NCBI GenBank assembly: GCA_900548735.1
Contig: URMC01000002.1
Span: forward strand, 1-51,416
Direction of reading: 5' to 3'
DNA: 51,416 nucleotides
From: an uncultured Eubacteriales bacterium
Lineage (GTDB): Bacteria; Bacillota; Clostridia; Oscillospirales; CAG-272
The translations under genes were made by a program, and so were the position numbers. Below the pieces are notes generated by a model. The model was not told the origin of the DNA and searched no databases. It saw only the letters and a list, made by a program, of their open reading frames with translations. Within the stretch, counting starts at the first letter, position 1; the number at the start of each line of letters is the position of its first letter. This document shows positions 5,340 to 49,031 of the stretch, piece after piece.

Positions 5340-7232
5340 ATGGATATGACGTTAAAACCTCTTGCGCTTTTCCCTTTTACTTCGAAAGAAATCAAGCCCC
5401 GCGGCTGGATGCGTCGCCAACTGGAAATTCAGGCGGCGGGGCTGGCGGGAAATCTGGACAAAATCTGGCCCGACGTGGCGGACAGCAGCTGGATCGGCGG
5501 ATCTCATGACTCATGGGAGCGCGTGCCGTACTGGCTGGACGGGTTTATCCCGCTTGCCTATCTGCTGGACGACGAGGATCTCAAAGCCAGAGCCAAAAAA
5601 TACATTGACGCGATTCTCGCACGGCAGGAGCCGGACGGCTGGCTCTGCCCCTGCGAGCGCAAAGAGCGTTCACGCTATGACACCTGGGCGCTGGAACTGA
5701 TCTCCAAAGTGCTGGTGCTGTGGTACGACTGCTCCGGCGACGAGCGCGTCCCGAACGCGCTGTACCGCGCGATGAAGCAGTTTGACCGCCATACCGACCG
5801 GCATCTGGTGCTGGACTGGGGCTCTACGCGCTGGTTTGAGGTGTTGTTTGCCCTTTACCGCCTGTATGAATGGTACGGCGAAGAGTGGATTCTCTCGCTT
5901 GCCGACAAAATGGGGGCTATCGGAGTGGACTGGAAGCGGGTTTTCACCCGCTGGCAATACGAAAAGCCGCGCTACGGCGACCGCGCGACCTGGGGGCAGC
6001 TTCACCACGTGGTCAACAATGAGATGATGCTGAAATCCGCGGCGCTTTACAGCCGCGTGAGCGGGGAGGACCCCACCGCGTTTTTTGAAGAGGTCTGGGG
6101 CAAGCTGAGCGCCGCGCACGGTCAGCCTTACGGCGTTTTTTCGGGTGACGAGTGCCTTGCCGGCACCTCTCCGATCGCCGGGACCGAGCTTTGCTCGGTG
6201 GTGGAGGCAATGTTCTCCTTTGAAACGCTCCTGTCGGTCACGGGTGACCCCGCCTTTGCCGACAAAACCGAATTTGCGGGCTTCAATGCCCTGCCGGCGA
6301 CCCTGTCGCCCGATATGTGGACGCATCAGTATGTGCAGATGGCAAATCAGATTGCCTGCCGCGTCATCCCGAAGGAAGCCGTGCACTTCACCACCAACAC
6401 GGGCGAGGCGCACCTGTACGGGTTGGAGCCGCACTACGGCTGCTGCACCTCCAATATGGGTCAGGGTTTCCCCAAACTGTGCCTTTCCTCGTTCTTCCGG
6501 AAAGGCAACGGCATTGCCAGCGCCGTGCTGGTGCCTGCCGAACTGCACACGCAGATCGACAGCGCGGACGTATGCGTGACGCTGGACACCGACTACCCGT
6601 TCCGCGGGAGCCTGACCTATACGGTCAGCGTCAGCCATCCGGTTCGGTTTCCGTTTTTCATCCGCATCCCCGGTTTTGCCAAAAGCGCCACGGTGGACGG
6701 AAAGCCCGCTGCCCCCGGCGCGTTTTTCGAGATCGACCGGGAGTGGAGCGGCAGTACGACCGTGCAGGCGGAGCTTTCGTTTGACGCCGAACTGCGTGCC
6801 GGCTATGACGGGATGAAGAGCGTGGTGCGCGGGCCCCTGTTATTTGCACTGAATATTGACGCCGAGTGGCACCCGCTGGAATACGTGCGAGACGGCGTGG
6901 TGCGCAAATTTCCGTATTGCGACTATGAACTGCTGCCCGCCTCCGAGTGGCAGTATGCCCTTGCCGGAACGGACTTTACCCCGGTGGAACTGCCGCTTGA
7001 CGGTGCCTGCCGTTTCTCCCCGGAGAGTGCACCGCTTGCACTGGAAACGGATCTGGTGCGCATTGACTGGGGGGAGGCAAACGGCGTTGCCGCCGCCACC
7101 CCGCGCGACCGCACGCCGATCGGCGAAAAGGTCAGAGCGCGCCTGATTCCTTACGGTTGTACCAACCTGCGGCTCTCGGTGATGCCATTTGCCGGCATTG
7201 CGCCGATTTCAGAAGAACAGCAGGATCATTAA
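5340..7232 (+). CDS. GH127/DUF1680-like beta-L-arabinofuranosidase family protein
   Basis: 630 aa; E-x-C (GTELCSVVEAM) and C-C (HYGCCTSNMGQGFPK) motifs match the Zn/Cys active-site pattern known for GH127; RBS aaaggag. Confidence 0.7.
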   Translation: MDMTLKPLALFPFTSKEIKPRGWMRRQLEIQAAGLAGNLDKIWPDVADSSWIGGSHDSWERVPYWLDGFIPLAYLLDDEDLKARAKKYIDAILARQEPDGWLCPCERKERSRYDTWALELISKVLVLWYDCSGDERVPNALYRAMKQFDRHTDRHLVLDWGSTRWFEVLFALYRLYEWYGEEWILSLADKMGAIGVDWKRVFTRWQYEKPRYGDRATWGQLHHVVNNEMMLKSAALYSRVSGEDPTAFFEEVWGKLSAAHGQPYGVFSGDECLAGTSPIAGTELCSVVEAMFSFETLLSVTGDPAFADKTEFAGFNALPATLSPDMWTHQYVQMANQIACRVIPKEAVHFTTNTGEAHLYGLEPHYGCCTSNMGQGFPKLCLSSFFRKGNGIASAVLVPAELHTQIDSADVCVTLDTDYPFRGSLTYTVSVSHPVRFPFFIRIPGFAKSATVDGKPAAPGAFFEIDREWSGSTTVQAELSFDAELRAGYDGMKSVVRGPLLFALNIDAEWHPLEYVRDGVVRKFPYCDYELLPASEWQYALAGTDFTPVELPLDGACRFSPESAPLALETDLVRIDWGEANGVAAATPRDRTPIGEKVRARLIPYGCTNLRLSVMPFAGIAPISEEQQDH

Positions 7233-11662: not shown

Positions 11663-12622
11663 TCATGCAAAATCTTTCAAAAACCAGACGTCCTCCCGCG
11701 GGATGGCAAATTCTCTCCCGCGCAGGTACCCCAGCACCCCGCTGTCATCGGCAAAATCAAACCGCAGTTTCCACGCGTAAAGCGCCTGATATTTATAGCC
11801 CCCCGCGCGGTCGTCACGGTTGTGACCGTACTTCCCGTCGCCCAACAACGGGTGCCCGATGAACGCGAGGTGTGCGCGGATCTGATGCGTGCGCCCGGTC
11901 ACCAATTCCACTTCCAATAAGCTCCGGTCGCCTTTCTCGGTAAGCACACGGTATTTGGTGATGATGTTTTTGACGCCCGGCAACGGCTTTTCTGATACCG
12001 TTACGGTATTTGTGGCGGCGTCCTTGCGCAAAAAGCCGGTCAGCGTTGCCGCTTTTTGCGGCATTTTGCCGTGCACGGCGCAAAGATAAAATTTGGAGGT
12101 CTCGTTTTGCTTGATTTTCTCATTCATCTCGCGCAGAGCCTCGGCGTTTTTCGCGGCAATCACGATGCCGCCCGTGTTGCGGTCAATCCGGTTGCAAAGC
12201 GCCGGCGCAAACGACTGCTCCCTCTCCGGGTCGTATTCCCCTTTTTGGTAGAGGTAGGCTTTCACGTGCAAAATCAGGGTGTTTTCCCCTCCGTCCGTGT
12301 CCTCGTGTACAAGAACCCCGGGGCGCTTGTTTAACAGGAGAATGTTTTCATCCTCGTAAATTACCGACAGTTTAGGGCGGATATTGGAAAGCGTTCCGGT
12401 GTCCCCGGTCGGCACGTCAAAAAACTCGTCTCGCAGGAAAAGCTGAATCGTATCCCCCGCCGCCAGCATCTGATTTTCCTTGGCGCGCGCACGGTTGACC
12501 TTGATTTTTTTGGTGCGGATGGCTTTGTACATCATGGAAAAAGGCAACCCGCGCACTGCTTTGGACAGGAATTTGTCCAAGCGTTGCCCCGCGTCGTTTT
12601 TCCCTACGGTCAGTTCTCTCAT
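11663..12622 (-). CDS. RluA-family 23S rRNA pseudouridine synthase (S4 domain + catalytic domain)
   Basis: S4-like N-terminus (QRLDKFLSK), catalytic-Asp motif LCNRIDRNTGGIVIAAKN, HQIRAHLA motif. ATG 12622 six nt after gggagg. Confidence 0.85.
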   Translation of the reverse strand: MRELTVGKNDAGQRLDKFLSKAVRGLPFSMMYKAIRTKKIKVNRARAKENQMLAAGDTIQLFLRDEFFDVPTGDTGTLSNIRPKLSVIYEDENILLLNKRPGVLVHEDTDGGENTLILHVKAYLYQKGEYDPEREQSFAPALCNRIDRNTGGIVIAAKNAEALREMNEKIKQNETSKFYLCAVHGKMPQKAATLTGFLRKDAATNTVTVSEKPLPGVKNIITKYRVLTEKGDRSLLEVELVTGRTHQIRAHLAFIGHPLLGDGKYGHNRDDRAGGYKYQALYAWKLRFDFADDSGVLGYLRGREFAIPREDVWFLKDFA

Positions 12623-12661
12623 CTCCATCCTCCCTTTTGCCGACAAAACAGGATATATAAG

Positions 12662-16817: not shown

Positions 16818-17597
16818 TTATTTCATAATCTCCCGGATGGCGGAGATGCACGCGGCGCGGAAGCCCGCGTCTTCCAATGCCACGACCCCACGGATGGTGG
16901 AGCCGCCGGGAGAGCAGACCATGTCTTTCAGCACCCCCGGGTGTGTGCCGGTCTCTTTCTGCAATCTGGCGCTTCCCTCAATCGTTGCCGAAACCATAGC
17001 AAGCGCTTTGTCGCGCGGCAAGCCGTAATACACGCCCGCGTCGGCAAACGCCTCAATCATCAGATCCACAAACGCGGGTCCGCAACCCGTGATCGCACCG
17101 CCAACGCCCATTTGCGCCGACGGAAGCACAAACACCTTGCCCAGCGCCGCAAACAGCGCTTTCACCTCCGTCAGTTCCGTTGCCGTCAGTGAATTGGTCT
17201 CCTCAAACAGAAACACCCCGCTGCCGACCAGCGCCGGCGTGTTGGGCATGATAAATTGCACCCGCACGCCCTCCGGCAGAATTGCCGCGTACCGCGCGTG
17301 ATCCCAACCCAACGCAATCGAAAGCAGCATCTTGCCCGGCAAGAGGTCGCGGATCTCCCCGATCACGCCCTCCACCTTGTCGGGCTTGCAGGCAATCAGC
17401 AAAGCGTCGGCACTCTGCACCCCCGCCCGAAGCGTGGTGGCAGGCATAAAGCCCATTTCCGCCGCTTTTCTGTCCATTTTTTCCGTATCTTTATCATACG
17501 CCGTCAGCATTCCGGAGCTAAGCCCCCCGGACTTCAAAAAGCCCGAAAGCAACGCCCCGCCCATATTTCCAACGCCGATTACACACAGTTTTTTCAT
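16818..17597 (-). CDS. proC: Pyrroline-5-carboxylate reductase
   Basis: MKKLCVIGVGNMGGALLSG NADP-binding N-terminus; C-terminal VCSPGGSTIRGV motif; RBS ggagg. Confidence 0.9.
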   Translation of the reverse strand: MKKLCVIGVGNMGGALLSGFLKSGGLSSGMLTAYDKDTEKMDRKAAEMGFMPATTLRAGVQSADALLIACKPDKVEGVIGEIRDLLPGKMLLSIALGWDHARYAAILPEGVRVQFIMPNTPALVGSGVFLFEETNSLTATELTEVKALFAALGKVFVLPSAQMGVGGAITGCGPAFVDLMIEAFADAGVYYGLPRDKALAMVSATIEGSARLQKETGTHPGVLKDMVCSPGGSTIRGVVALEDAGFRAACISAIREIMK

Positions 17598-24347: not shown

Positions 24348-25232
24348 ATGATGGAATATATTCTGGAAAACGAACAACTGAAAGTGACCGTTTCGGATGA
24401 AGGCGCGGAAATCCGCTCCATCGTCGGCAAAAAGACCGGAACCGAATATCTCTGGCAAGGTGACCCTACCTATTGGTCCGGGCGCGCACCGGTGCTTTTC
24501 CCCATTTGCGGGCGGCTGACCGAGGGCAAGTATACCTGGAAAGGGCAGACGTATGAAATGAATCTGCACGGGTTTGCCCGCCGCAGTGTATTCACCGCAG
24601 AAAAGGTCGGTGACCATACAGTTACCTTCCTGTTGACCGCAAACGAAGAAACCAAAAAAATGTATCCGTTTGATTTTGAGTTCCGGATGACGTATACCCT
24701 GACGGACAGCACCGTGGAATGTCGTTATGACGTGAAAAACGAGAAAGAAAGGGATCTGCCTTTTGCCGTGGGCGGGCATCCCGGCTTCAACGTACCGATG
24801 GAAGCAGGCAAAAATTTTGAAGACTACCGGCTGGAATTTGCCTGTGCCAAAGAGCCGCGCGAGTTGGTATTCTCCGACACCTGTTTTGACACCGGCAAGA
24901 CCCGTGCGTTCCCGCTGGAGGAAGGCAGAATTCTTCCGCTCCGTCACAGCCTTTTTGATATTGACGCAGTGTTTCTTACCGATATGTGCCACAAGGTCAC
25001 GCTGGGAACCCCCGGTGGCACCCGGTCGCTGACGCTCAGTTTCAAAGGCTTTCCTCACGTCGGGTTCTGGCACAAACCCCGCACCAAAGCCCCATGTGTC
25101 TGCATTGAGCCGTGGTGCAGCGTTCCTTCCCCGGACGGCGTAATCGACGACTTTGCAACCAAAAAAGAGTTGACGCACTTAAAAAAGGGCGAGAGCTACA
25201 CCAACGCGTTTGAAATCACGATCTGTGAATAA
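24348..25232 (+). CDS. Aldose 1-epimerase (galactose mutarotase-like) family protein
   Basis: EYLWQGDPTYWSGRAPVLFPICGRL and GGHPGFN, FWHKP, CIEPW motifs of the LacX/aldose-epimerase family. Confidence 0.85.
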   Translation: MMEYILENEQLKVTVSDEGAEIRSIVGKKTGTEYLWQGDPTYWSGRAPVLFPICGRLTEGKYTWKGQTYEMNLHGFARRSVFTAEKVGDHTVTFLLTANEETKKMYPFDFEFRMTYTLTDSTVECRYDVKNEKERDLPFAVGGHPGFNVPMEAGKNFEDYRLEFACAKEPRELVFSDTCFDTGKTRAFPLEEGRILPLRHSLFDIDAVFLTDMCHKVTLGTPGGTRSLTLSFKGFPHVGFWHKPRTKAPCVCIEPWCSVPSPDGVIDDFATKKELTHLKKGESYTNAFEITICE

Positions 25233-25355: not shown

Positions 25356-25440
25356 TGGTGGGAGCGGGTGGATTCGGACCACCGAAGGCAGTGCCAGCAG
25401 ATTTACAGTCTGTCCCCTTTGGCCACTCGGGAACGCTCCC
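25356..25440 (-). tRNA. tRNA-Tyr(GTA): tRNA-Tyr (anticodon GTA), long variable arm, CCA encoded
   Basis: Reverse complement GGGAGCG...ACAGACTGTAAATCTGC...GGTCCGAATCCACCCGCTCCCACCA folds as a class II cloverleaf. Confidence 0.95.
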
Positions 25441-25483
25441 ATATGTTTGAAATGTATTCGGCGGCTCTGCCGCCGAATATCAC

Positions 25484-25558
25484 TGGAGCTGGTGAACGGA
25501 GTCGAACCATCAACCTGCTGATTACAAATCAGCTGCTCTGCCATTGAGCCACACCAGC
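25484..25558 (-). tRNA. tRNA-Thr(TGT): tRNA-Thr (anticodon TGT), CCA encoded
   Basis: Reverse complement GCTGGTGTGGCTCAATGGCAGAGCAGCTGATTTGTAATCAGCAGGTTGATGGTTCGACTCCGTTCACCAGCTCCA. Confidence 0.95.
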
Positions 25559-25575
25559 GATTTCGGAACGTTGCA

Positions 25576-25604
25576 ATTATACCACAGTCCTTGCCGCTTG
25601 TCAA
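25576..25604 (-). promoter_or_regulatory. Consensus sigma-A promoter for the tRNA unit
   Basis: Minus strand TTGACA, 17 nt, TGnTATAAT. Confidence 0.65.
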
Positions 25605-25681
25605 GCCCTTTTTGCAAAAAATGTGGTTTTTTCAAAAAGTTCGGCGGTGCCCCGCCCCGGCGTACCGGGGCGGGGCGGTTT

Positions 25682-27181
25682 TTACGCCAGCGGAATTTCG
25701 ATTATCGCCACGCAGGCGGGCGGCAGAACAACTTTCTCCGGAGTAACCTCCGCGGCGAGCGCGGGAGTTACCTGATCCGGCGCCTCAAACGTGTTGACGG
25801 TGTCCGGGTTGTCACAGTGCAAAACGCGCACCGTTGCCGCCCCTTTTGTCGTTCCGCCGACAATGTGCAGGGCGATTTCCGCGCCGTTTTGCAAATCCGC
25901 ATTGGTCAGCGTAACGGTCACTTTTCCCTCCTTCACCGAGGCGGAGGCGGAAAAGCGCAGAATTTTTGTCTCCTGCCCGTCCTTGGGATTGATGTACGCA
26001 ATCTCGTCGTTGTCGATTGCGGTGCGCACGGCGGTGGCGTCCATATGCCCCTGATAGAGGTCAAAAACGTGATACGTGGGAGTGGTAATGCACCGATCCC
26101 CCGCCGCCAGCATCAGGCTTTGCAGATTGTTGACCACCTGCGCGATGTTCGCCATCCGGATTTTGTCGCAGTTGTTCTGAAAAATGTTCAGCGTGTTCCC
26201 CGCTACCAGTGCCTCGCGCATGGTGGATTGCTGTTCATACAGATTTGCCCCTTTGCTGGGGCCGCTGCCGGGCTTGTGCCAGGTGCCCCACTCGTCAAAC
26301 ACCAGTTTTGCCTCTTTTTCCATCCCGTAGCCCATGATAAAGCCCCAGGTGCGGTCGATCACCGTTTGCGTGCGTTGCACTTTGCGCATCGTGTCATACC
26401 AGCCGTCCGCATCAAATCCGCGGCACTCGCTGCCCCCGCAATAGTAGTGGAGCGTATAGCCGTTGAATTTGCTGTACCGCAGGTGCCGGAGCTCCCCCAG
26501 GCAGTCTCTTGCCCAATCCGCTTCCAGCCCATTGGTGCCGGAAACAAACAGTTCCCCGCCCATATATCGGGTCAGGTCGTAGAGCACCGCGGCGTATTTG
26601 CGGTACTCATGCGCGTAATTGACGGCGCTCATCTCGCCGCCACCGCCCCAGGTCTCGTTGCCCACGCCCCAGTATCGGACGCCAAACGGCTCCGGATCGC
26701 CGTTTTTCTCACGTTCCAGCGCCAGTGTGGTACTCCCGCGCGGAGAGTTGCAGTAATCCATCCAGTCCCGCGCGTCCATCGGAGTCATGGTGGTGATATT
26801 GACGGCAAAATACGGCTCTGCCCCTATCAGGCGGCAAAGGTGAACAAACTCATGCGTGCCCACGGCGTTGCTCTCGGTTCTCCCGTCCTCATACCCCCAC
26901 CAGGAAAGCCGTGTGGGGCGTTTTTCGCGGGGACCGATACCGTCCCTCCAATGGTAGGTCTCGGCAAAGCACCCGCCGGGCCACCGGAGCACCGGCACGT
27001 GAATGGCGCGCAGTTTTTCCACCGCTTCCGTTCTCCATCCGCCGATGTTGGGCACCGGAGAGTCCTCCCCCACCCACAGCCCGTCATACATCACGCCGCC
27101 GATGTGTTCGGCAAACTGACCGTAGATGTTTTTGTCGATCGTGCCGATTTTTTCGGGCAACATTATGTAAAGATTTTTCAT
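25682..27181 (-). CDS. GH51 alpha-L-arabinofuranosidase
   Basis: NIYGQFAEHIGGVMYDGLWVG...LRWPGGCFAETYHW...WGVGNETWG (acid/base Glu context) are typical of AbfA-type GH51; RBS aaggaga. Confidence 0.9.
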   Translation of the reverse strand: MKNLYIMLPEKIGTIDKNIYGQFAEHIGGVMYDGLWVGEDSPVPNIGGWRTEAVEKLRAIHVPVLRWPGGCFAETYHWRDGIGPREKRPTRLSWWGYEDGRTESNAVGTHEFVHLCRLIGAEPYFAVNITTMTPMDARDWMDYCNSPRGSTTLALEREKNGDPEPFGVRYWGVGNETWGGGGEMSAVNYAHEYRKYAAVLYDLTRYMGGELFVSGTNGLEADWARDCLGELRHLRYSKFNGYTLHYYCGGSECRGFDADGWYDTMRKVQRTQTVIDRTWGFIMGYGMEKEAKLVFDEWGTWHKPGSGPSKGANLYEQQSTMREALVAGNTLNIFQNNCDKIRMANIAQVVNNLQSLMLAAGDRCITTPTYHVFDLYQGHMDATAVRTAIDNDEIAYINPKDGQETKILRFSASASVKEGKVTVTLTNADLQNGAEIALHIVGGTTKGAATVRVLHCDNPDTVNTFEAPDQVTPALAAEVTPEKVVLPPACVAIIEIPLA

Positions 27182-27190
27182 TTTTTCTCC

Positions 27191-29230
27191 TTATTCTATG
27201 AGGTATCGGATTTCGGTCTCGTTTGGGGCAAGATTAAATGTCCAAATCACGCCCTTTTGCGTACCCTCGACCTCGGGGCGCAGGTTGGTAGCGATCCGAC
27301 TGACGCCGAAAAGCCCTAACTTACCGCCCTCGTAAAGGCGGATACCGGTTTGAGAGCGGCGCAGAATCGCCGCGGGAGACAGAAATTTATCCGTCCGCCC
27401 CAAGGGGGTCACCCGCCCGCTGAGCGGGAAGAAGAGATACAGCCGAAAGGCGTCATGATCCGGCAGGGTCAGGGTAAACCGCTCGCCCCGTTCCAGCACG
27501 AAATTCTCACCCGTCAACTGCTCGCATACCAGGTACCGCCCGGCGCGCATCCCCGCGTCGGCGGCGGAAATTTCCCCGGTTTGCGGTTTGTTTTCCTCAT
27601 GCAGGTTGAACGCGGCAAGCACGCCGCAACCGTTCACACGGTTGAAAATTTTAAACGGCGTATCGGCTGTCCGCGGGTCGGTGAGCAGGCAATCGTTGGT
27701 CGGGGTTGCCTGCCCGTCGGCGCGAAGCAACTTGCCGTCCGAAAAGCACAGCGGAGAGAGAATCTCCCCACGGGAGCGCCCCAGCTTGTCGCTGACGTAT
27801 ACGGGCCCGCCGGAGATGGCGCGGCAGACGCTGTTTTTGAGCGCCTGTGCGTCGTCCGTCCACCACATATCCCAATCGCTGAAATAAAACTGTCCCTGAA
27901 AAAGCGAATTGTAGGAGCATTGCAGAATATGTTTGGCAAACCACGCGCTGTTTTCGGGCATAAAATCGTCCGAGCAGCGGGAAACGGCGCTTTCCGCACG
28001 GTTCCACATACACTCGCTTGCCATGCCCATGCAGTTGATCAGCCCGTCGCCGAAATGCTCTTTTGTCACGGTTTCAATCGCACCCTGAATTGCCGCGGCA
28101 GCCTCGCCTACGGGCAATAAGTGCCGATACGTGTTGCGATAATGGCTTTGGTTATCCACTTTTACAAAATCGCCGCCGGCATTTTGAATCATCTCCTGCA
28201 TCGCGGTGTGAAACCGTTCTGCCGCCTCTCTCGTGGGTTTGACCACCAGTTTCCCCGCAGGGGTCATCACAAGGTCATCCGCCATGCGCGCGGCAAGCGG
28301 CCCGTTCGGATCCACGCCTTTCCAATATCCGGTGGTGGGATACCACACGCCGACTTTGAACCCCTTTCGGTGCAGTGTGTCAATCGCGCCCGACAGTCCG
28401 TTCGGAAAGCGTGTGGGGTCTGCCTCCATTTCATACAGCGCACTGCCGTGCATCACCTTCACCATTTCGGCAAACGGGAGGTCGGCGGGCACTTCGTTCA
28501 GCCCCTTGACGTGCCCCCACATATCATCGATGATGCACCAGCGCACCGGAATCTTTTTGGCAAGAAATTCGTCCGCCTTTTCGGCAAGCCCCGCTTCGCT
28601 CACACGGATCTGAAACGCATCCCACGAGCACCAGCCGAGATACTCAAAAATTTCGGGAAAGGGTTTTCGGTCAATGGTTTTCACCCTGCCGCAAAGTACG
28701 CGCTCCGCCGCCTCTGCCGCACCGCGAAGCAGCGCGTGCGGGTCTTTGCCCGCGGCAAGCAGGACGCATGCGGTCTCCGGAATTTCAGTCAGCCCCGGGG
28801 CAAAACTAAACAGCTGAATATCCAGTCCCTTTTCGCCGCCGGTCAGCACACAGTTGAACTTTTTGCCGCAAAGAGGCCACAAAAGCCGCCAGACTTTGCC
28901 CTCTTTCCAAAGCAGTGCCTGCGTGCGGGGGGGCACCTTGGCAAGCTCCTCCCCAAACTCCGGGCGGCACCAGAAATCCCCGTGCATTTTATCCGCCACA
29001 AACCGTACCTTCCGGTTGGGCAGGCGCACGGTCAGGGCGGCATCCTCCGAAAGGGTCTCACCCTGCGCCGTCAGCGCCGCCTTCACACGCAGTACCTGTG
29101 CGATCCCCACCCGCTCCGTGCGGATCTCGCATCTGCCCTCCGGCGCGTCGTATATCCCTTCTCTGTTGCGGGAAAGCGAAAACTCCCGCCCCGTGGCGGT
29201 TTGCAGAAAAACGGTAAAATTTTTGTTCAT
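27191..29230 (-). CDS. GH36-clan raffinose-synthase/Sip1-like alpha-galactosidase family protein
   Basis: GWCSWDAF, IIDDMWG, FVKVDNQ and RCSDDF motifs. ATG 29230 (RBS aaggaga) overlaps the HAD stop codon as ATGA. Confidence 0.8.
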   Translation of the reverse strand: MNKNFTVFLQTATGREFSLSRNREGIYDAPEGRCEIRTERVGIAQVLRVKAALTAQGETLSEDAALTVRLPNRKVRFVADKMHGDFWCRPEFGEELAKVPPRTQALLWKEGKVWRLLWPLCGKKFNCVLTGGEKGLDIQLFSFAPGLTEIPETACVLLAAGKDPHALLRGAAEAAERVLCGRVKTIDRKPFPEIFEYLGWCSWDAFQIRVSEAGLAEKADEFLAKKIPVRWCIIDDMWGHVKGLNEVPADLPFAEMVKVMHGSALYEMEADPTRFPNGLSGAIDTLHRKGFKVGVWYPTTGYWKGVDPNGPLAARMADDLVMTPAGKLVVKPTREAAERFHTAMQEMIQNAGGDFVKVDNQSHYRNTYRHLLPVGEAAAAIQGAIETVTKEHFGDGLINCMGMASECMWNRAESAVSRCSDDFMPENSAWFAKHILQCSYNSLFQGQFYFSDWDMWWTDDAQALKNSVCRAISGGPVYVSDKLGRSRGEILSPLCFSDGKLLRADGQATPTNDCLLTDPRTADTPFKIFNRVNGCGVLAAFNLHEENKPQTGEISAADAGMRAGRYLVCEQLTGENFVLERGERFTLTLPDHDAFRLYLFFPLSGRVTPLGRTDKFLSPAAILRRSQTGIRLYEGGKLGLFGVSRIATNLRPEVEGTQKGVIWTFNLAPNETEIRYLIE

Positions 29231-29904
29231 TCCGACAGCTTCTCCTTCCATATCCGAATCATTTCGGTAAAATCCTTTGTCACACTGAGCACGGGGACGC
29301 GGCTTTTCTCATCCCGTTCCGGGGCTTTTTCGCCGATGAGGGCGATCCCGGCGACCCCTGCCGCCCTTGCCGCCTGCACGCCGGAATAGGAATCCTCAAA
29401 TACAGTGCACTCCCCCGGCGCCGCACGCAGGCGCTTTGCCGCAAGTAAAAATCCGTCCGGCTCCGGCTTACCGGGAAAGGTGCCGTCGTCCAGCACGATC
29501 CTCTCCCGGTCAAACCAGCGGGAAAGCCCGAAAATGCGGAAGTAAAAATCCACGTTGCTGCACTCCGACCCGGTGGCAATGGTAAAATGCACGCCCGCGG
29601 CACGCAGATAATCCAAAAATTCCTCCGCCCCCGCCACCAGATGACAACTTGCGGGGTCGGCAACGCACAACTCCCGGTAAATTCCCTCTTTTTCCTGTGC
29701 CATACGCGCGATTTCCGCCTCACTCACGCCCTCTCCGAACATCCGCCGGAGGATAAACGCATTTGCCCTGCCGAGAAAAAATTTTTCCAGTTCTTCCCTC
29801 GTCACGCGCTTGCCGTAGCGGTCGGCAAACACGTGCCATGCCGCCATATGTTTTTCGGAATCTTGAAACAGCGTTCCGTTGAAATCAAATATAACAGAAT
29901 GCAT
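29227..29904 (-). CDS. HAD-superfamily hydrolase (beta-phosphoglucomutase-like subfamily IA) with D-x-N motif I
   Basis: Motif I IFDFNGTLF, motif II TGS, C-terminal FEDSYSGVQAARAAG; RBS aggagg. Confidence 0.85.
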   Translation of the reverse strand: MHSVIFDFNGTLFQDSEKHMAAWHVFADRYGKRVTREELEKFFLGRANAFILRRMFGEGVSEAEIARMAQEKEGIYRELCVADPASCHLVAGAEEFLDYLRAAGVHFTIATGSECSNVDFYFRIFGLSRWFDRERIVLDDGTFPGKPEPDGFLLAAKRLRAAPGECTVFEDSYSGVQAARAAGVAGIALIGEKAPERDEKSRVPVLSVTKDFTEMIRIWKEKLSE

Positions 29905-29912
29905 AAAGCCTC

Positions 29913-30740
29913 CTATTTCGCGGCACGTATGCGGGCGTTTCGGAAAACAGACAGGTCAGGCGGGGCGTTTTCCCGCCCCTTTATCTCCCCGGTAAACGTT
30001 TTGCCCACCCACGGGTATTTTGCGCCCGCCATTTTGTTGTAGGGCAACAGTTCCACCGGTGACTCCCCGGCAAGTGCCGCAATGCCTTTCAGATTTTCCG
30101 GCGTGTCCGTGATTCCCGGAATCAGGGGCACGCGCAACAGATACGGCACGCCGCAGGATTGCAAATAACGGAGATTTTTGAGAATCGGCGCGTTATCCGC
30201 CCCGGTATAGTGCCGGTGCGCCGCGGGGTCTGCCAATTTTACGTCCATCATCACAAAATCGCAAAGCCGGACGATATTCCGAAAGACCTCCGGTGCGGCA
30301 AAACCGCTGGTCTCGATGGCTTTGTGTACTTCCAGCGCCTGCAAAAGTTCCCCGGTAAAATCGGGCTGAAAAAGCGGTTCCCCGCCCGAGAGCGTCACGC
30401 CGCCGCCGGAAGTGCGGAAAAAGTCTTTATCCCGTGAGAGCTTTGCGGCAAGCGCCGCCGCCTCCCACTCTTTGCCGATCTCCTCCACCAGCCCCTTGGG
30501 ACAGGCGTGCAGACACCTGGAAAGCCCGCGGCACTCCGGATGATCGCAGGGGATTTTGCACCGCCCGCAATGCAGGCACCCTTTTTCCCGCACCAGCACC
30601 CCGCGCCCAGCATCCAGCCCCTCCGGGTTATGGCACCACACGCACCGCAACGGGCATCCGCGCAAAAATACCGTAGTGCGCACACCGGGTCCATCGTTGA
30701 CCGAGAACTCTTTGATGTCAAAAATATATCCTTTTGCCAT
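29913..30740 (-). CDS. Glycyl-radical enzyme activating protein (radical SAM, with ferredoxin-like Cys-rich insert)
   Basis: MAKGYIFDIKEFSVNDGPGVRTTVFLRGCPLRCVWCHNPE (CX3CX2C) plus CLHCGRCKIPCDHPEC...CLHACP. The ATG overlaps the GRE TAA stop by 1 nt. The long N-terminal extension in the track is rejected. Confidence 0.9.
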   Translation of the reverse strand: MAKGYIFDIKEFSVNDGPGVRTTVFLRGCPLRCVWCHNPEGLDAGRGVLVREKGCLHCGRCKIPCDHPECRGLSRCLHACPKGLVEEIGKEWEAAALAAKLSRDKDFFRTSGGGVTLSGGEPLFQPDFTGELLQALEVHKAIETSGFAAPEVFRNIVRLCDFVMMDVKLADPAAHRHYTGADNAPILKNLRYLQSCGVPYLLRVPLIPGITDTPENLKGIAALAGESPVELLPYNKMAGAKYPWVGKTFTGEIKGRENAPPDLSVFRNARIRAAK

Positions 30741-32710
30741 TATACCATATATTCCTGCCGCGCGATCACGTGATCCTGATACTCCCGATCCAGCTCTACG
30801 AAATAAGCGCTCCAGCCCCAGATGCGCACCACCAGCTGACCGTAATTCTCCGGATGTTTCTGCGCGTCTTTCAGTTTCTCGGCATTGACGGCATTCAGTT
30901 GGAGCTGATGCCCGCCCCGCAGGATGAAAAACCGTACCAATTCCGCCAGTTTGGCGGTGCTTTCGGGGTCGGCAAACATCGAGGAGGCAAATTCCAGCGT
31001 GAGGGGCCCGCCGTTGCAGACCCGCCCCAGATGCTGCTTGGTAAAGGAACGGATTACCGAAACGGGACCCGGCGTTTTCGTGAACAGGTTGGGCGAAAAA
31101 TTCGTGCCGAACGGCTCGCCTTTGCGGCGCCCGTCCGCCGTGGCACCGATCTTGTTTGCGTGCCAAAGGTAATACATCGCGGTGCCGGTGCCCGCGCGAT
31201 AGCACCCGCCGTAGTCGTTCCGCTTGCCCTCCAGCCCGTCCGCAAAGTCGTCTAAGAGTCTGGTGGCAAGACTGTCCACCGCGTCGTCATCACATCCCAT
31301 TTTCGGGGATTCATAGCGCAAAAGCCGCAACAGTTGAGGGTCTTTTTCAAAATCCGTCTCCAACCCCGACAAAAGGCGCGGCACGTCCACATCCTTTTTT
31401 TTAAACACGTGACAGCGGATAGCGGCAAGCGCGTCCGCGGCGCCGGCAATACCGGTGACATGAAATCCGAAATTACGATAACGGCGCTCCGGGATCAGCA
31501 GATCATAGAGCGGAGAAGGAAGAAACGCCGCCGCGCGTTTCTTCGCGGTCTTTTCCACCGCACCGACGCGCACCGTGCTGTCCACCCCGGCAAGAAACGT
31601 TTCAAAATCTGGGGCGCCCGGCAGATACGAAAAGGTTGCCTCCCGCACCGCCTGCGGCAGATTATAGGCGCCGATGTTGACGATTTCATATCCCACACCG
31701 GGGATGATAAACTCCCAGCACGCCGCCACCACGTAATTGCATGCGTCCTCGTGCCGGTAGCCGTACGCTTCCAGTGCGGGGATGATTACGTCATCGTTGT
31801 TGTATTGCGGAACGCCCAGCCCCGCCGCCGTCAGTTCACTGCCGAGGCGGTAGACCTCAATCGGCGTTTTGGAACAAACGCGCAGATTGATTTTCGGATC
31901 AATCATCAAAAGGCGTTTGCTGACCCGCAGGCACATCTCGGAAAGGGCGTTGAAACAGTCGTTCCCCTCGGCGTCACAGCCGCCAAGCACCATGCTCTGC
32001 CCGTTGTCGCCCTGCTGTTGCCCGGGGTACAGGTCGCTGTCCTTGTTGAAAGAGAGAAAGAAATCGGCAAGCAGTTCCTCCGCGCTCTCCGGTGTTTCCA
32101 CCCCCGCCGCCAGGTCGTGCGCGAAATACGGGTACATATACTGGTCAAACCGCCCCACGGTATTGTGGTAACAGCCCTCCAACCACAGCGAAAAGTGCAG
32201 GATCCGGAAAAACTGCAACGCCTCGCGGAAGGTGGTGGCGGGCTTTCGCGGCACCACGGAAAGCACCGCCGCCACGTCGTTTCTCCCCATGCGCTGTGCC
32301 TCTGCCCGATACCGGTCGGTAAGAGAAAGAATAGCGGCGATCTCGCGCCGGGCATATTCGTCCGCGCGCTCCCGCACGGCATCCAGCCCTTCGCGGATGA
32401 GCGCCGCATAGTTCCCGCACAGATTGGAGGTGTACCCCAGTTCGTGAATCTCACCGTTGTTTGCGCGGTACTCCTCCCACTCCTCTTCGGTCATCACGTC
32501 GCCCGCCTTGCCCGTGGTGCGCAGAAACACGATCTGCTCCCCCGGCAGAATGTGCGGCTCCTCGGCGGCGGCAAGCCACTCGAATCTTCTCACAATGCGC
32601 TCGGCAAGCGGCAATTTCCCCGCCGAGAACTCCGCGGCAAAATCTTCCGTGACCTCTTTGCGGAAGGCGCGGTGTTTTTTCTGCAAGACATATTCGTAAG
32701 TTTCGGTCAT
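30740..32710 (-). CDS. Glycyl-radical enzyme, PFL2-like but compact (656 aa)
   Basis: C-terminal glycyl loop VVRIWGWSAYFVEL (Gly codon 30815-30817), Cys-loop AACWEF (Cys codon 31718-31720), GRFDQYMYPYF and ATADGRRKGEP motifs. ATG 32710 with RBS aaagagg. Confidence 0.85.
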   Translation of the reverse strand: MTETYEYVLQKKHRAFRKEVTEDFAAEFSAGKLPLAERIVRRFEWLAAAEEPHILPGEQIVFLRTTGKAGDVMTEEEWEEYRANNGEIHELGYTSNLCGNYAALIREGLDAVRERADEYARREIAAILSLTDRYRAEAQRMGRNDVAAVLSVVPRKPATTFREALQFFRILHFSLWLEGCYHNTVGRFDQYMYPYFAHDLAAGVETPESAEELLADFFLSFNKDSDLYPGQQQGDNGQSMVLGGCDAEGNDCFNALSEMCLRVSKRLLMIDPKINLRVCSKTPIEVYRLGSELTAAGLGVPQYNNDDVIIPALEAYGYRHEDACNYVVAACWEFIIPGVGYEIVNIGAYNLPQAVREATFSYLPGAPDFETFLAGVDSTVRVGAVEKTAKKRAAAFLPSPLYDLLIPERRYRNFGFHVTGIAGAADALAAIRCHVFKKKDVDVPRLLSGLETDFEKDPQLLRLLRYESPKMGCDDDAVDSLATRLLDDFADGLEGKRNDYGGCYRAGTGTAMYYLWHANKIGATADGRRKGEPFGTNFSPNLFTKTPGPVSVIRSFTKQHLGRVCNGGPLTLEFASSMFADPESTAKLAELVRFFILRGGHQLQLNAVNAEKLKDAQKHPENYGQLVVRIWGWSAYFVELDREYQDHVIARQEYMV

Positions 32711-32742
32711 AGAAGCCTCTTTCCGCACGGAACGTGCTGAAT

Positions 32743-32754
32743 ATTAACGTTAAT
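32743..32754. promoter_or_regulatory. Perfect 12-bp palindrome ATTAACGTTAAT (candidate operator)
   Basis: Lies 3 nt downstream of the -10 box of the GRE operon promoter, overlapping the expected transcription start. Confidence 0.45.
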
Positions 32755-32757
32755 GTT

Positions 32758-32786
32758 ATTATAGCACGCCCCACCTGCGCTGTCAA
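32758..32786 (-). promoter_or_regulatory. Consensus sigma-A promoter of the GRE operon
   Basis: Minus strand TTGACA (32786-32781), 17 nt, TGcTATAAT (32763-32758). Confidence 0.65.
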
Positions 32787-34808: not shown

Positions 34809-35642
34809 ATGAACGAGTTTTGGGAAGCGGCAAAAAAGAAGATCCTTACCGCGGCACACCGCGGCGTTTCGGGCGGGAATATCCCCTGCAACACCGTGAC
34901 CGCCTATGAAATCGCGCTCCGCCAGGGCGCGGATATGATCGAGATTGACGTGGAGATGAGCGCGGACGGCAAGCTGTTCATCTTTCACCCGGGCATGGAG
35001 CCGGCGCACCTGTGGTGCGCGGAAAAGCTCTCCAACCTGACGGCGGAAGAAATTTCTCACCTGCGGTATGTCAACTATGACCGCGTTCCCACGCAGTTCG
35101 GCGTCAACACGCTGGATGAGGTATTGGAGCGCTTCGGAGGCCGTTGCTTTATCAATGTGGACAAGTTCTGGGGGCACCCGAAAGAGATTTACGCAGCGAT
35201 CTGCCGCCACAACTTAAAGGATCGGGTGCTGGTGAAATCCAACCCGACCGAAAAAGTGCTTTCGGTGCTGGAAGAGGTGGCACCGGACCTGCCCTTTATG
35301 CCGATCGTGAAGGACACGCACCCGCTCCATGGGGATCTGATGCGCCGCAACATCCGTTATGTCGGCGCGGAGGTGCTGTTTACCGAGGAAAGCGCGGAGG
35401 TTGCCAGCCCGGAGTTTATCGAAATGATGCACCGGGACGGAAAGTTGGTTTGGGTAAATGCCATTATCTACAACTACCGCCGCCAGCTCAGTGCCGGGCA
35501 CTCGGACGACCGGTCGCTTTGCGGCGACCCTGCCGACGGCTGGGGATGGCTGGCGCGCCGGGGGTTTGACTTTATTCAGACCGACTGGATGCAGATGATG
35601 ACCGAATACCTGAAAAAAGAAAATCTGCTGTATCGCAAATAA
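34809..35642 (+). CDS. Glycerophosphodiester phosphodiesterase family protein
   Basis: AAHRGVSGGNIPCNTVTAYEIALRQGADMIEIDV matches the GDPD HR(G)...E.D motif; RBS aaaggaga. Confidence 0.85.
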   Translation: MNEFWEAAKKKILTAAHRGVSGGNIPCNTVTAYEIALRQGADMIEIDVEMSADGKLFIFHPGMEPAHLWCAEKLSNLTAEEISHLRYVNYDRVPTQFGVNTLDEVLERFGGRCFINVDKFWGHPKEIYAAICRHNLKDRVLVKSNPTEKVLSVLEEVAPDLPFMPIVKDTHPLHGDLMRRNIRYVGAEVLFTEESAEVASPEFIEMMHRDGKLVWVNAIIYNYRRQLSAGHSDDRSLCGDPADGWGWLARRGFDFIQTDWMQMMTEYLKKENLLYRK

Positions 35643-47986: not shown

Positions 47987-48015
47987 AGTATAGCACACCG
48001 CAAAGAAAAAGGCAA
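47987..48015 (-). promoter_or_regulatory. sigma-A promoter for small ORF + LRR lipoprotein
   Basis: Minus strand TTGCCT, 17 nt, TGcTATACT. Confidence 0.55.
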
Positions 48016-48358: not shown

Positions 48359-48467
48359 ATGTAGGTTATTCAGTCAGGCAAACTGGAATTTATTTAACCA
48401 GGACAATAACATAGTATTTTATATAATTGATGTTATATTTCAATATACTCTTCCGTTTTGATAAACG

Positions 48468-49031
48468 TTAATGATTTCGGATGACCGATTCACTCTTTAT
48501 TTCAAAAGCGATTTTGCCGTCCGATATTTTATATTCCACCACATATTGATACCCCACAATGGGATTCTCCATTGCATGATCGGTTTTATCAAATAAGCAC
48601 AGACTCAAGCCAAATTCTCCGTCTGTTTTATCGAAAAAACTGTTTTCAAAATGCAAAGTGGCTTCTTTTTTATAATTATAGTTACCGTCCGAAACGGTAC
48701 AAGAATAATCGTCTTTATCAAGACCTTCAATGCTTTGTAAAATCGACGGAGCTTTGCCACTATTGTCGGATGCTAAAAAAACCGCTTTATAATTTTCAAG
48801 GTTTGTAGAGTTTATTCCATAACGAACAGTAATGGAAACGGTATCAAGCGAGAACAATGAATTGAGGTTTGAAACCGAAAAAGAACAAATTCTTTTCTCT
48901 TCGGGCGGATTGGGCTGCGGTTTATCTTCTGTTTTTTTATTACAACCAACAAAAAGCAAAGACGTAAATATCAATATAAATAATAAGGCAAGCGAAACTA
49001 CATTTTTTCTCTTTAACGAATGGATTTTCAT
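48468..49031 (-). CDS. Orphan AT-rich lipoprotein (187 aa)
   Basis: Lipobox LALLFILIFTSLLFVGC; RBS aggagg; own promoter and terminator. Composition 22/60 G+C in 48481-48540 versus 39/60 in 15001-15060. Confidence 0.7.
   Translation of the reverse strand: MKIHSLKRKNVVSLALLFILIFTSLLFVGCNKKTEDKPQPNPPEEKRICSFSVSNLNSLFSLDTVSITVRYGINSTNLENYKAVFLASDNSGKAPSILQSIEGLDKDDYSCTVSDGNYNYKKEATLHFENSFFDKTDGEFGLSLCLFDKTDHAMENPIVGYQYVVEYKISDGKIAFEIKSESVIRNH

Follow-up and report, generated by a model that had tools for sequence, protein, structure and literature searches.

The window (the whole 51,416-nt stretch analysed here, contig URMC01000002.1 of an uncultured Eubacteriales bacterium) contains five tightly packed genes on its minus strand, and we asked what a compact glycyl-radical enzyme (GRE) encoded by the first of them might do among glycosidases. 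The five open reading frames (ORFs) encode the compact GRE (30740-32710, 656 aa), a radical-SAM (S-adenosylmethionine) GRE activase (29913-30740, 275 aa), a HAD-IA protein (29227-29904, 225 aa), a GH36-like protein (GH, glycoside hydrolase; 27191-29230, 679 aa) and a GH51 protein (25682-27181, 499 aa), and they, as well as the junctions between them, read just as an original prediction made from the DNA letters had described. The GRE and activase genes overlap by 1 nt in TAATG, the activase and HAD genes are separated by 8 nt with an AGGAGG lying across the stop codon, the HAD and GH36-like genes overlap in ATGA, and the gap of 9 nt between the GH36-like and GH51 genes, GGAGAAAAA, contains GGAG. 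More than ten public gut metagenome contigs, whose genes were called independently, yield the same five products (656/275/225/679/499 aa). Order and spacing are repeated in loci L001-L004 (GRE identity 73-93%) and L081 (80%), where HAD identity goes down to 52% (L-numbers denote loci with GRE relatives in other genomes or contigs), and because they recur in such diverged orthologues the tight packing is not a matter of chance. From the spacing, we infer that the five genes are co-transcribed.

A sigma-70-type promoter on the minus strand (32758-32786) precedes the GRE gene, with TTGACA, a 17-nt spacer carrying a TG extension, and TATAAT, i.e., a 12/12 match to the consensus, and the same architecture is present upstream of the GRE in L001-L004 and L081. 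Past the GH51 stop codon lies a GC-rich hairpin (25648-25677) with a 13-pair stem, 12 pairs of which are G-C, and a fold energy of -36.3 kcal/mol (z = -2.9). The single consensus promoter and the hairpin, the latter placed at about 25650-25683, had both been anticipated. The U-run begins about 11 nt beyond the stem, so this is no textbook intrinsic terminator; the hairpin is the probable end of the transcription unit. Directly past it are the genes for tRNA-Thr(TGT) and tRNA-Tyr(GTA) (25356-25604), which have their own promoter (25604-25576), separate from that of the operon and likewise a 12/12 consensus match. With its own promoter before it and the hairpin and tRNA promoter after it, the unit is bounded on both sides. 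An Rfam scan of the operon returned the two tRNAs as its sole matches and no riboswitch.

The operon is flanked by an aldose 1-epimerase gene (24348-25232, plus strand) and a GDPD+DUF4996 glycerophosphodiesterase gene (34809-35642, plus strand), both of which keep their synteny in L211 and L212. Dozens of independent gut metagenome assemblies include contigs (e.g., L207-L210) whose 7.4-7.7 kb comprise exactly this operon and which break off within typA and at the tRNA genes. Such ends are probably assembly breaks at conserved flanks, but the operon could also be a variable insert among strains.

The compact glycyl-radical enzyme and its activase

The GRE has a PFL-like barrel domain (PFL, pyruvate formate-lyase; PF02901, E 1.5e-71) and a C-terminal Gly_radical domain (PF01228, E 9.8e-17). 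Its Cys loop reads A-A-C331-W-E333, with C331 aligned to C433 of the Clostridium butyricum glycerol dehydratase, and its glycyl loop reads R629-I-W-G632-W, with RIWGW aligned to the RVAGY of the same enzyme type; C331, W332, E333 and G632 are invariant among 77 homologues. The features by which a member of the GRE superfamily is recognised, namely barrel, glycyl domain, catalytic Cys and an adjacent radical-SAM activase, are all present, and we propose that the enzyme would form its glycyl radical on G632. The invariant C331-W332-E333 also has the form of the Cys-X-Glu motif that marks GREs of the 1,2-eliminase/isomerase class (PMC13450708). As for the activase, it passes the GRE-activase subfamily model TIGR02494 (255.4 bits, cut-off 174.35), and its radical-SAM motif CX3CX2C consists of C29, C33 and C36. 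The activase is compact too: its shortened ferredoxin-like insert has seven Cys, arranged as CX2CX2CX3C plus only CX5CX3C, and the second auxiliary cluster may therefore be incomplete.

Class membership of the GRE was tested with curated NCBIfam models and their cut-offs. The scores were 278.6 bits for the PFL2/glycerol dehydratase subfamily TIGR01774 (cut-off 678.2), 235.8 for the HypD equivalog NF043068 (cut-off 1100), 211.9 for the PflD-type model NF007437 (cut-off 1109), 203 for HpfG and 198 for HpsG (cut-off 1000 for each), 179.5 for CutC (cut-off 1050) and 162 for indoleacetate decarboxylase (cut-off 1100). We also built an AlphaFold2 (AF2) model of the GRE from 12 sequences (pLDDT 76, pTM 0.82), and in Foldseek propanediol dehydratase, PflD, CutC and glycerol dehydratase came out nearly level (TM 0.77-0.79); the comparison confirmed the GRE fold, and with 18-23% identity for all of them the characterised classes are not rankable. 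Judged from its sequence, then, the GRE is a superfamily member of the eliminase/isomerase class by motif that falls outside every characterised GRE family, as had been predicted: all of the NCBIfam equivalogs score far below their cut-offs, and the solved structures share no more than the identities just given.

The best sequence match (E 9e-61) and the best profile match (E 4e-89) of the GRE is the glycerol dehydratase structure 1r8w. Relative to this C. butyricum enzyme the GRE is about 130 residues shorter: the barrel lacks about 32 residues, and about 98 are missing before glycerol dehydratase residue 213. The profile alignment keeps C433 (C331 in the GRE), E435 (E333) and H281 (H182), whereas four pocket residues are changed: H164 to N96 (a tentative, low-confidence pairing in a low-scoring segment, the other pairings lying in well-aligned blocks), S282 to N183, D447 to N345 and Y640 to G509. 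The replacements are invariant in the family, and in place of the glycerol dehydratase loop that bears Y339 the family has an invariant G-D-N-G-Q loop (234-238). PflD has an Asp and a Tyr at the positions of N345 and G509. Read from these alignments, the GRE pocket is changed, polar and probably larger, which argues against glycerol or propanediol being bound as in the glycerol and propanediol dehydratases.

These substitutions bear on a first alternative, namely that the GRE, though divergent, dehydrates glycerol or a short 1,2-diol. Such an enzyme could use the aglycone of glycosyl-glycerols, e.g., alpha-galactosylglycerol from plant galactolipids or teichoic acids, or it could provide an NADH sink in sugar fermentation, leading from dihydroxyacetone phosphate to glycerol-3-phosphate, through the HAD protein to glycerol, and on to 3-hydroxypropanal. 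Apart from the best match being 1r8w, a diol substrate would suit the context of L082 (GRE 69% identical), where a DeoR gene and a GlpA-like dehydrogenase trio are followed by GH36(Melibiase)-GRE-activase-ribokinase (PfkB) with a GDPD gene alongside, and it would suit the GDPD gene of the window, the iron-containing alcohol dehydrogenase (Fe-ADH) gene upstream of the GRE in L070 and the frequent GDSL acylhydrolase neighbours; a supply of 1,2-propanediol is conceivable via FucI and GH78-like neighbours. However, every pocket residue common to the glycerol and propanediol dehydratases is invariantly replaced, the GRE scores under the cut-off of the PFL2/glycerol dehydratase subfamily, and the loci show no consistent partner genes for a 1,3-propanediol dehydrogenase, an aldehyde dehydrogenase or a microcompartment. 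The regulators, moreover, are of the LacI (RbsR-like) and AraC types, which usually sense sugars and not small diols. We therefore regard a diol dehydratase as unlikely, if the foremost of the alternatives.

To see how widely the enzyme occurs, the peptides AACWEFI[IV] and VRIWGWSA were scanned against a one-genome-per-species collection, where at least 599 stretches matched, of which at least 585 are confirmed GRE relatives. The carriers are almost all metagenome-assembled genomes of gut, caecum and rumen Clostridia (Oscillospiraceae, Acutalibacteraceae and related groups), and the two cultured ones are Ructibacterium gallinarum DSM 107454 (L059, L070) and Bacterium 1xD8-48 (L020). Databases name the compact GREs only as 'pyruvate formate-lyase' or 'formate C-acetyltransferase'. 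Conservation reaches at least 97% at 183 positions across 77 full-length members (54-100% identity), and C331, W332, E333, G632 and the residues aligned to the glycerol dehydratase pocket are among these positions. The members therefore seem to share one function, irrespective of which genes surround them. Representatives at 50% identity form a continuum of short GREs (640-720 aa) in which identity falls to about 30% and the family has no sharp edge; no firm family size follows from them. Some carriers have several GRE paralogues in tandem. Three GRE genes and two activase genes lie within 12 kb in L059 (17-14741), where an SMP-30/gluconolactonase-like gene stands directly upstream of a 668-aa GRE and a compact GRE-activase-GH36 unit comes after it, and in L078 (6503-14818) a 766-aa GRE with its own activase stands directly before the compact GRE.

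Glycosidase partners and gene neighbourhoods

The GH36-like protein belongs to the raffinose-synthase/alkaline alpha-galactosidase group by its Raffinose_syn domain (PF05691, E 1.2e-54) and by its match to Arabidopsis RS6 (7exf, E 1e-45), with which the motifs KVD357 (nucleophile K-x-D), SDDF420 (acid/base S-D-D) and DWDMW are aligned. It may act on alpha-galactosides or on beta-L-arabinopyranosides, as a hydrolase or as a transferase. The GH51 protein has an Alpha-L-AF_C domain and matches the Thermobacillus GH51 structure 2vrk over its full length (E 1.6e-109); it contains the motifs GNE176 and DE297W, of which we take E176 to be the acid/base and E297 the nucleophile, as is usual in the family. 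No signal peptide is visible in the sequence of either protein, and the two should thus act in the cytoplasm on imported oligosaccharides.

Neighbourhoods were counted over 80 genome loci, over 79 for GH36 across the GRE tree, and over 86 for a wider set. As a conserved system, the five-gene layout of the original prediction is not supported: the full order is confined to the window's own clade, that is, to L001-L004, L081 and near-identical metagenome contigs, and elsewhere it is the GRE and its activase that are retained. The activase gene lies directly 3' of the GRE gene in 72 of the 80 loci, 5 of the remaining 8 ending at a contig edge, and the GRE-activase pair is the sole constant part of the neighbourhood. 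At GRE identities of 65% or less, the gene context is variable.

The predicted tie between the GRE and GH36 and GH51 glycosidases fared better, as genes of both kinds recur near the pair. Of the 79 loci, 23 have GH36-type genes, and hardly any branch of the GRE tree is without them. There are 28 such genes, 20 of which are no more than three genes away from the GRE: 5 adjoin it upstream, 8 come straight after the activase and 7 stand one gene further on. GH36-type genes make up 5.1% of near genes versus 1.7% of far genes (Fisher p = 0.006). Since two unrelated GH36 subfamilies, Raffinose_syn (19 loci) and Melibiase (9 loci), have been recruited beside the GRE, the association speaks for a link to activity and not for shared ancestry of a block. 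GH51 genes are present in 6 loci and follow the pair in three separate lineages. Further recurrent neighbours are esterases of the GDSL, SASA and BD-FAE types, FGGY kinases, GH127, GH2 and Cof-type HAD genes, Gfo/Idh/MocA oxidoreductases (7 loci) and DUF4867 genes (5-6 loci). Regulators with an AraC (arabinose-type) ligand domain were seen in about 20 loci, usually divergent, and LacI regulators in 12.

Given that the pair alone is constant, that its contexts are very diverse and that in some loci it stands beside NrdD/NrdG or housekeeping genes, one could suppose that the adjacency is opportunistic and that GRE and activase form a mobile two-gene module functionally unrelated to the glycosidases. 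This we find improbable, because GH36-type genes of two subfamilies adjoin the pair in roughly one quarter of the loci across the tree, the operator described below is common to transporter/glycosidase genes and the GRE, and the overlapping stop/start codons of the window operon are kept down to 52% HAD identity.

The HAD protein matches Pfam HAD families and is of the beta-phosphoglucomutase/YqaB type, reaching no NCBIfam equivalog cut-off. Motifs II-IV are present, and its motif I reads D7-F-N9-G-T (DFNGT), invariant in six orthologues, in place of the DxDx(T/V) of HAD phosphatases and beta-phosphoglucomutase; Asn thus occupies the Asp+2 position, the general acid/base position of these enzymes. 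The nearest solved relative, the uncharacterised structure 6w04, also has DFNGT. The Asn in motif I suggests a non-canonical activity or a long-lived phospho-enzyme.

Whether the HAD protein could handle a phosphate ester matters to another reading, in which the GRE would be an isomerase like YbiW or PflD, with a phosphorylated sugar or anhydro-alditol as substrate. YbiW and PflD, the only known sugar-acting GREs, convert 1,5-anhydroglucitol-6-phosphate and 1,5-anhydromannitol-6-phosphate to 1-deoxyfructose-6-phosphate ('anhydroglycolysis') and retain Cys-X-Glu, the Glu bonding the C2 hydroxyl (PMC13450708). The stretch past the Cys loop of our GRE (E-x-x-I-P-G-x-x-Y) is nearer to PflD than to glycerol dehydratase, PflD (8yjo) came second in the Foldseek ranking, HAD genes of differing subfamilies stand beside the pair in the window's clade, L056 and L084, and ribokinase/PfkB and FGGY kinases are found in several loci. 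In E. coli, ybiW adjoins the HAD phosphatase gene ybiV, an arrangement parallel to the GRE-activase-HAD order of the window. Nevertheless, the PflD-type model is at 212 bits against a cut-off of 1109, D445 and the Tyr of PflD correspond to N345 and G509 in the GRE, no phosphotransferase system (PTS), fructose-6-phosphate aldolase or transaldolase-type aldolase genes were found as neighbours among the 86 loci, and the acid/base position of the HAD protein is Asn. A sugar-phosphate isomerase accordingly seems unlikely as well, and we place it behind a diol dehydratase.

A cyclitol (myo-inositol, D-chiro-inositol or pinitol), freed by the GH36 enzyme from galactinol or galactosyl-cyclitols, would be a further possible substrate. 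The GH36 partner is in the plant raffinose-synthase/alkaline alpha-galactosidase family, whose members use galactinol, the L086 and L051 operons contain an IolB equivalog (245 bits, cut-off 205) together with a PfkB kinase and a class II aldolase, and Gfo/Idh/MocA and xylose-isomerase-like TIM-barrel genes are recurrent. In contrast, the IolB module is present in only 2 of the 86 loci, no IolD-type ring-opening enzyme was seen, and GH51, GH127 and GH2 partners do not fit a cyclitol, which leaves this reading with even less to commend it than the opportunistic one.

The two operons just mentioned are of note in themselves. Both L086 (172-11786) and L051 (214-13629) hold a ten-gene operon with GRE and activase as its last genes, and they encode a GlcD-like FAD oxidase, an FeS protein, a class II ketose-bisphosphate aldolase, a PfkB kinase, the IolB equivalog, DUF4867, a XylB-like kinase and an EtfB-EtfA fusion; L051 has an additional mutarotase (aldose 1-epimerase)-like gene, judged from its N-terminal sequence only. 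Elsewhere as well, DUF4867 genes lie between or next to GRE and activase, or beside an FGGY kinase gene of the same operon (L049 at 11984-12631, L069, L080, L031, as in L051 and L086). DUF4867 is the SftX/SqvB cupin family, to which no function is assigned (PMC11968277). A sulfoquinovose-type reading was set aside, as no sulfoquinovosidase, sulfite-handling or sulfonate-exporter genes were seen in the loci and the GRE scores far under the cut-offs of the sulfonate GRE models.

A candidate LacI-type operator

Directly after the -10 box of the operon promoter lies an 18-bp palindromic candidate operator of the LacI-family type, AACATTAACGTTAATATT (32740-32757). Its core (32743-32754) is a perfect 12-bp palindrome, and the central CG and the half-sites are as is typical of LacI-family operators. 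The element occupies the same place in L001-L004 and L081, where the remaining intergenic DNA has diverged; the family consensus is AACATTAWCGWTAATGTT, and AACATTAACGATAATGTT is the form of the candidate operator DNA for a LacI-binding assay. In 19 of the 80 genome loci it precedes the compact GRE by 13-59 nt, often with an adjoining LacI gene, and outside the window's clade the loci that bear it include L020, L060, L066, L070, L075, L078 and L167. A conserved LacI-type operator at the GRE promoter is new in this analysis. For each of the four adjacent LacI proteins examined, the RbsR model was the best one, with 190-214 bits against a cut-off of 382, and a LacI-family repressor would be expected to bind the operator.

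Two loci link the operator to transport. L020 (Bacterium 1xD8-48) has one operator before a substrate-binding protein (SBP)-permease-permease-GH127-LacI run and a second before GRE-activase, and L167 (metagenome, GRE 51% identical) has SBP-permease-permease-ATPase, the operator, and then GRE-activase-LacI. The L167 transporter is a CUT2-type monosaccharide ABC (ATP-binding cassette) system with an RbsB-like binding protein closest to ribose-binding proteins. By this arrangement of predicted sites, the candidate operator would define a regulon in which, in other genomes, the GRE stands together with transporters and glycosidases. That one type of regulator couples the GRE to sugar uptake or to intracellular glycosidases points to a sugar-like effector and substrate, and the shared operator strengthens the tie between GRE and glycosidases. 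Within the window, the operator occurs at the promoter and, with one mismatch, at 48461, which is at chance level (at least 2 matches in 24 of 100 shuffles). A metagenome scan for the operator gave 120 loci, almost all on unrelated environmental contigs, with L167 alone informative, and revealed no regulon.

These loci also bear on the substrate that the original prediction had put forward, according to which the operon would degrade hydroxyproline-rich plant glycoproteins and the GRE would be a hydroxyproline-type eliminase. GH127 beta-L-arabinofuranosidase genes are indeed found inside GRE units elsewhere (L020), and GH51 together with an alpha-galactosidase-type enzyme could conceivably trim Hyp-arabinosides and Ser-alpha-Gal. 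Those GH127 genes echo the idea faintly, their product being L-arabinose and not hydroxyproline. Against it stand the scores of the HypD equivalog (236 bits, cut-off 1100) and of the HypD activase model NF043069 (218 bits, cut-off 425), the absence of any peptidase or proline-pathway gene from the unit, and the monosaccharide type of the L167 transporter. The window's proC (16818-17597) and GH127-like gene (5340-7232), which had been cited as fitting such a substrate, turned out to lie among housekeeping genes, 13-25 kb away and with no operon link; the latter matches the GH127 catalytic domain weakly (E 7.8e-13) and lies beside an FkbM-type methyltransferase gene, about 18 kb from the operon. 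The sequence thus weakly refutes the hydroxyproline idea, which we hold to be the least probable reading.

Elsewhere in the window, between positions 48000 and 50000, local GC falls to 0.46, and the ORF at 48468-49031 has a GC content at third codon positions (GC3) of 0.33, compared with about 0.7 elsewhere in the window; the region around this ORF may be foreign DNA.

Proposed reaction and comparison with known systems

Taken together, we favour a reading in which the unit is sugar-inducible and the GRE, as an eliminase or isomerase of the Cys-X-Glu type, works on a neutral molecule resembling a sugar, and we would put its probability at roughly 0.55. The LacI-family operator over the transcription start would make the unit sugar-inducible. 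The activase would install a radical on G632, from where it would move to C331, and the C331 thiyl radical would take a hydrogen from a carbinol carbon of the substrate, with E333 accepting the proton of the substrate hydroxyl. The resulting ketyl radical would expel the neighbouring C-O substituent, by 1,2-elimination or by ring C-O cleavage, and once the hydrogen had been given back the product would be a deoxy-carbonyl. The substrate would be a monosaccharide-like molecule freed in the cell by the glycosidases of the operon. Both reaction type and substrate are proposed here from motifs and gene context.

As to what this molecule might be, GH36 enzymes are alpha-galactosidases and in some cases beta-L-arabinopyranosidases, GH51 enzymes are alpha-L-arabinofuranosidases and GH127 enzymes are beta-L-arabinofuranosidases, and L-arabinose and D-galactose have the same C1-C4 configuration. 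Because the GH36, GH51, GH127 and GH2 partners share L-arabinose and D-galactose as products, we rank a neutral arabinose/galactose-type monosaccharide or its glycoside first, as a tentative choice that is clearly less secure than the reaction class. A free monosaccharide would fit the aldose 1-epimerase gene beside the window operon and the similar-looking gene in L051, and it would also fit the pentose/hexose type of the L167 transporter.

Several observations weigh against the favoured reading. The identity of the substrate is not derivable from sequence, co-transcription is read from gene spacing, the AF2 model is weak in the glycyl domain (pLDDT below 50 at residues 510-557 and 623-656), and, as said above, one of the four pocket substitutions (H164/N96) is tentatively paired. 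The neighbours are mixed, including GH20, GH28, GH31, GH78-like, FucI, UxuA and NrdD genes as well as an IolB/aldolase/kinase module and a glycerol-3-phosphate dehydrogenase module, and many loci consist of a regulator with GRE-activase and nothing more. HAD phosphatase-type genes recur, so that a phosphorylated substrate is conceivable, and no consistent downstream enzyme for a deoxy-carbonyl product was seen among the loci. With mixed neighbours and no constant downstream enzyme, each of the rival readings keeps some probability.

GREs carry out the chemically hardest anaerobic steps in the gut, such as the conversion of choline to trimethylamine, hydroxyproline dehydration, sulfonate cleavage and anhydro-sugar cleavage, and every newly assigned GRE clade so far has revealed a new nutrient route. 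The compact clade is large (at least 585 loci) and has a structure of its own, with about 130 residues fewer and an altered pocket. Its repeated incorporation into glycosidase operons, like its control by sugar-type regulators, suggests that radical chemistry takes part when Clostridia of the gut and rumen break down plant glycans. It is even possible, if doubtful, that the family is the first of radical enzymes to act directly on a common unphosphorylated plant monosaccharide or its glycoside, for instance an L-arabinose or D-galactose-configured sugar set free in the cytoplasm by GH51, GH127 or GH36 enzymes. If so, it would open a new oxygen-sensitive sugar-catabolic route, shared by hundreds of Clostridia species of gut and rumen and controlled by a dedicated RbsR-like repressor with a conserved operator. 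The operator and its regulator offer a handle for finding the inducer, and the candidate substrates are now directly testable.

A June 2026 review of the GRE superfamily lists six C-O eliminases, CutC, three C-S lyases, the isomerases HplG, YbiW and PflD, decarboxylases, X-succinate synthases, formate lyases and aminoacyl radical enzymes, and stresses that whole GRE clades remain without an assigned function (PMC13450708). Neither a compact GRE nor one organised with glycosidases is among its classes (PMC13450708), and full-text literature searches, recent bioRxiv preprints included, returned no description of the compact clade. The claim that known GREs do not occur with such glycosidases therefore agrees with the review, whereas the list of known systems on which the claim had been based omitted the sugar-phosphate GREs YbiW and PflD. 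As these two act on sugar phosphates, radical chemistry on a sugar has a precedent, and the idea is not categorically new.

The closest characterised relatives by sequence, profile and fold are the glycerol and propanediol dehydratases (DhaB1/DhaB2 of C. butyricum, 1r8w; propanediol dehydratase, 5i2g), which have in common with the window GRE the barrel, Cys-X-Glu, the C-terminal glycyl loop and an adjacent radical-SAM activase with an auxiliary cluster domain. The window GRE differs from them in its identity of 22-23%, in having Trp as the X of Cys-X-Glu and RIWGW instead of RVAGY, and in standing among glycosidases under LacI/AraC control, with neither 1,3-propanediol dehydrogenase nor microcompartment genes. 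YbiW and PflD (20-22% identity) resemble it in the sequence after the Cys loop, but its partners are glycoside hydrolases, the pocket Asp and Tyr are replaced, and no PTS or aldolase gene is nearby. HypD is also a GRE C-O eliminase with Cys-X-Glu and is abundant in gut Clostridia, yet it shares 19% identity with the window GRE, whose unit has no pyrroline-5-carboxylate (P5C) reductase. Lastly, the hypBA-type beta-L-arabino-oligosaccharide cluster of Bifidobacterium longum, which we take to comprise LacI, an ABC importer and GH127, appears to follow the same logic as L020, in which an arabino-oligosaccharide would be imported and then hydrolysed in the cytoplasm. We know of no GRE in the bifidobacterial cluster, whereas the L020 regulon additionally holds a GRE and its activase.

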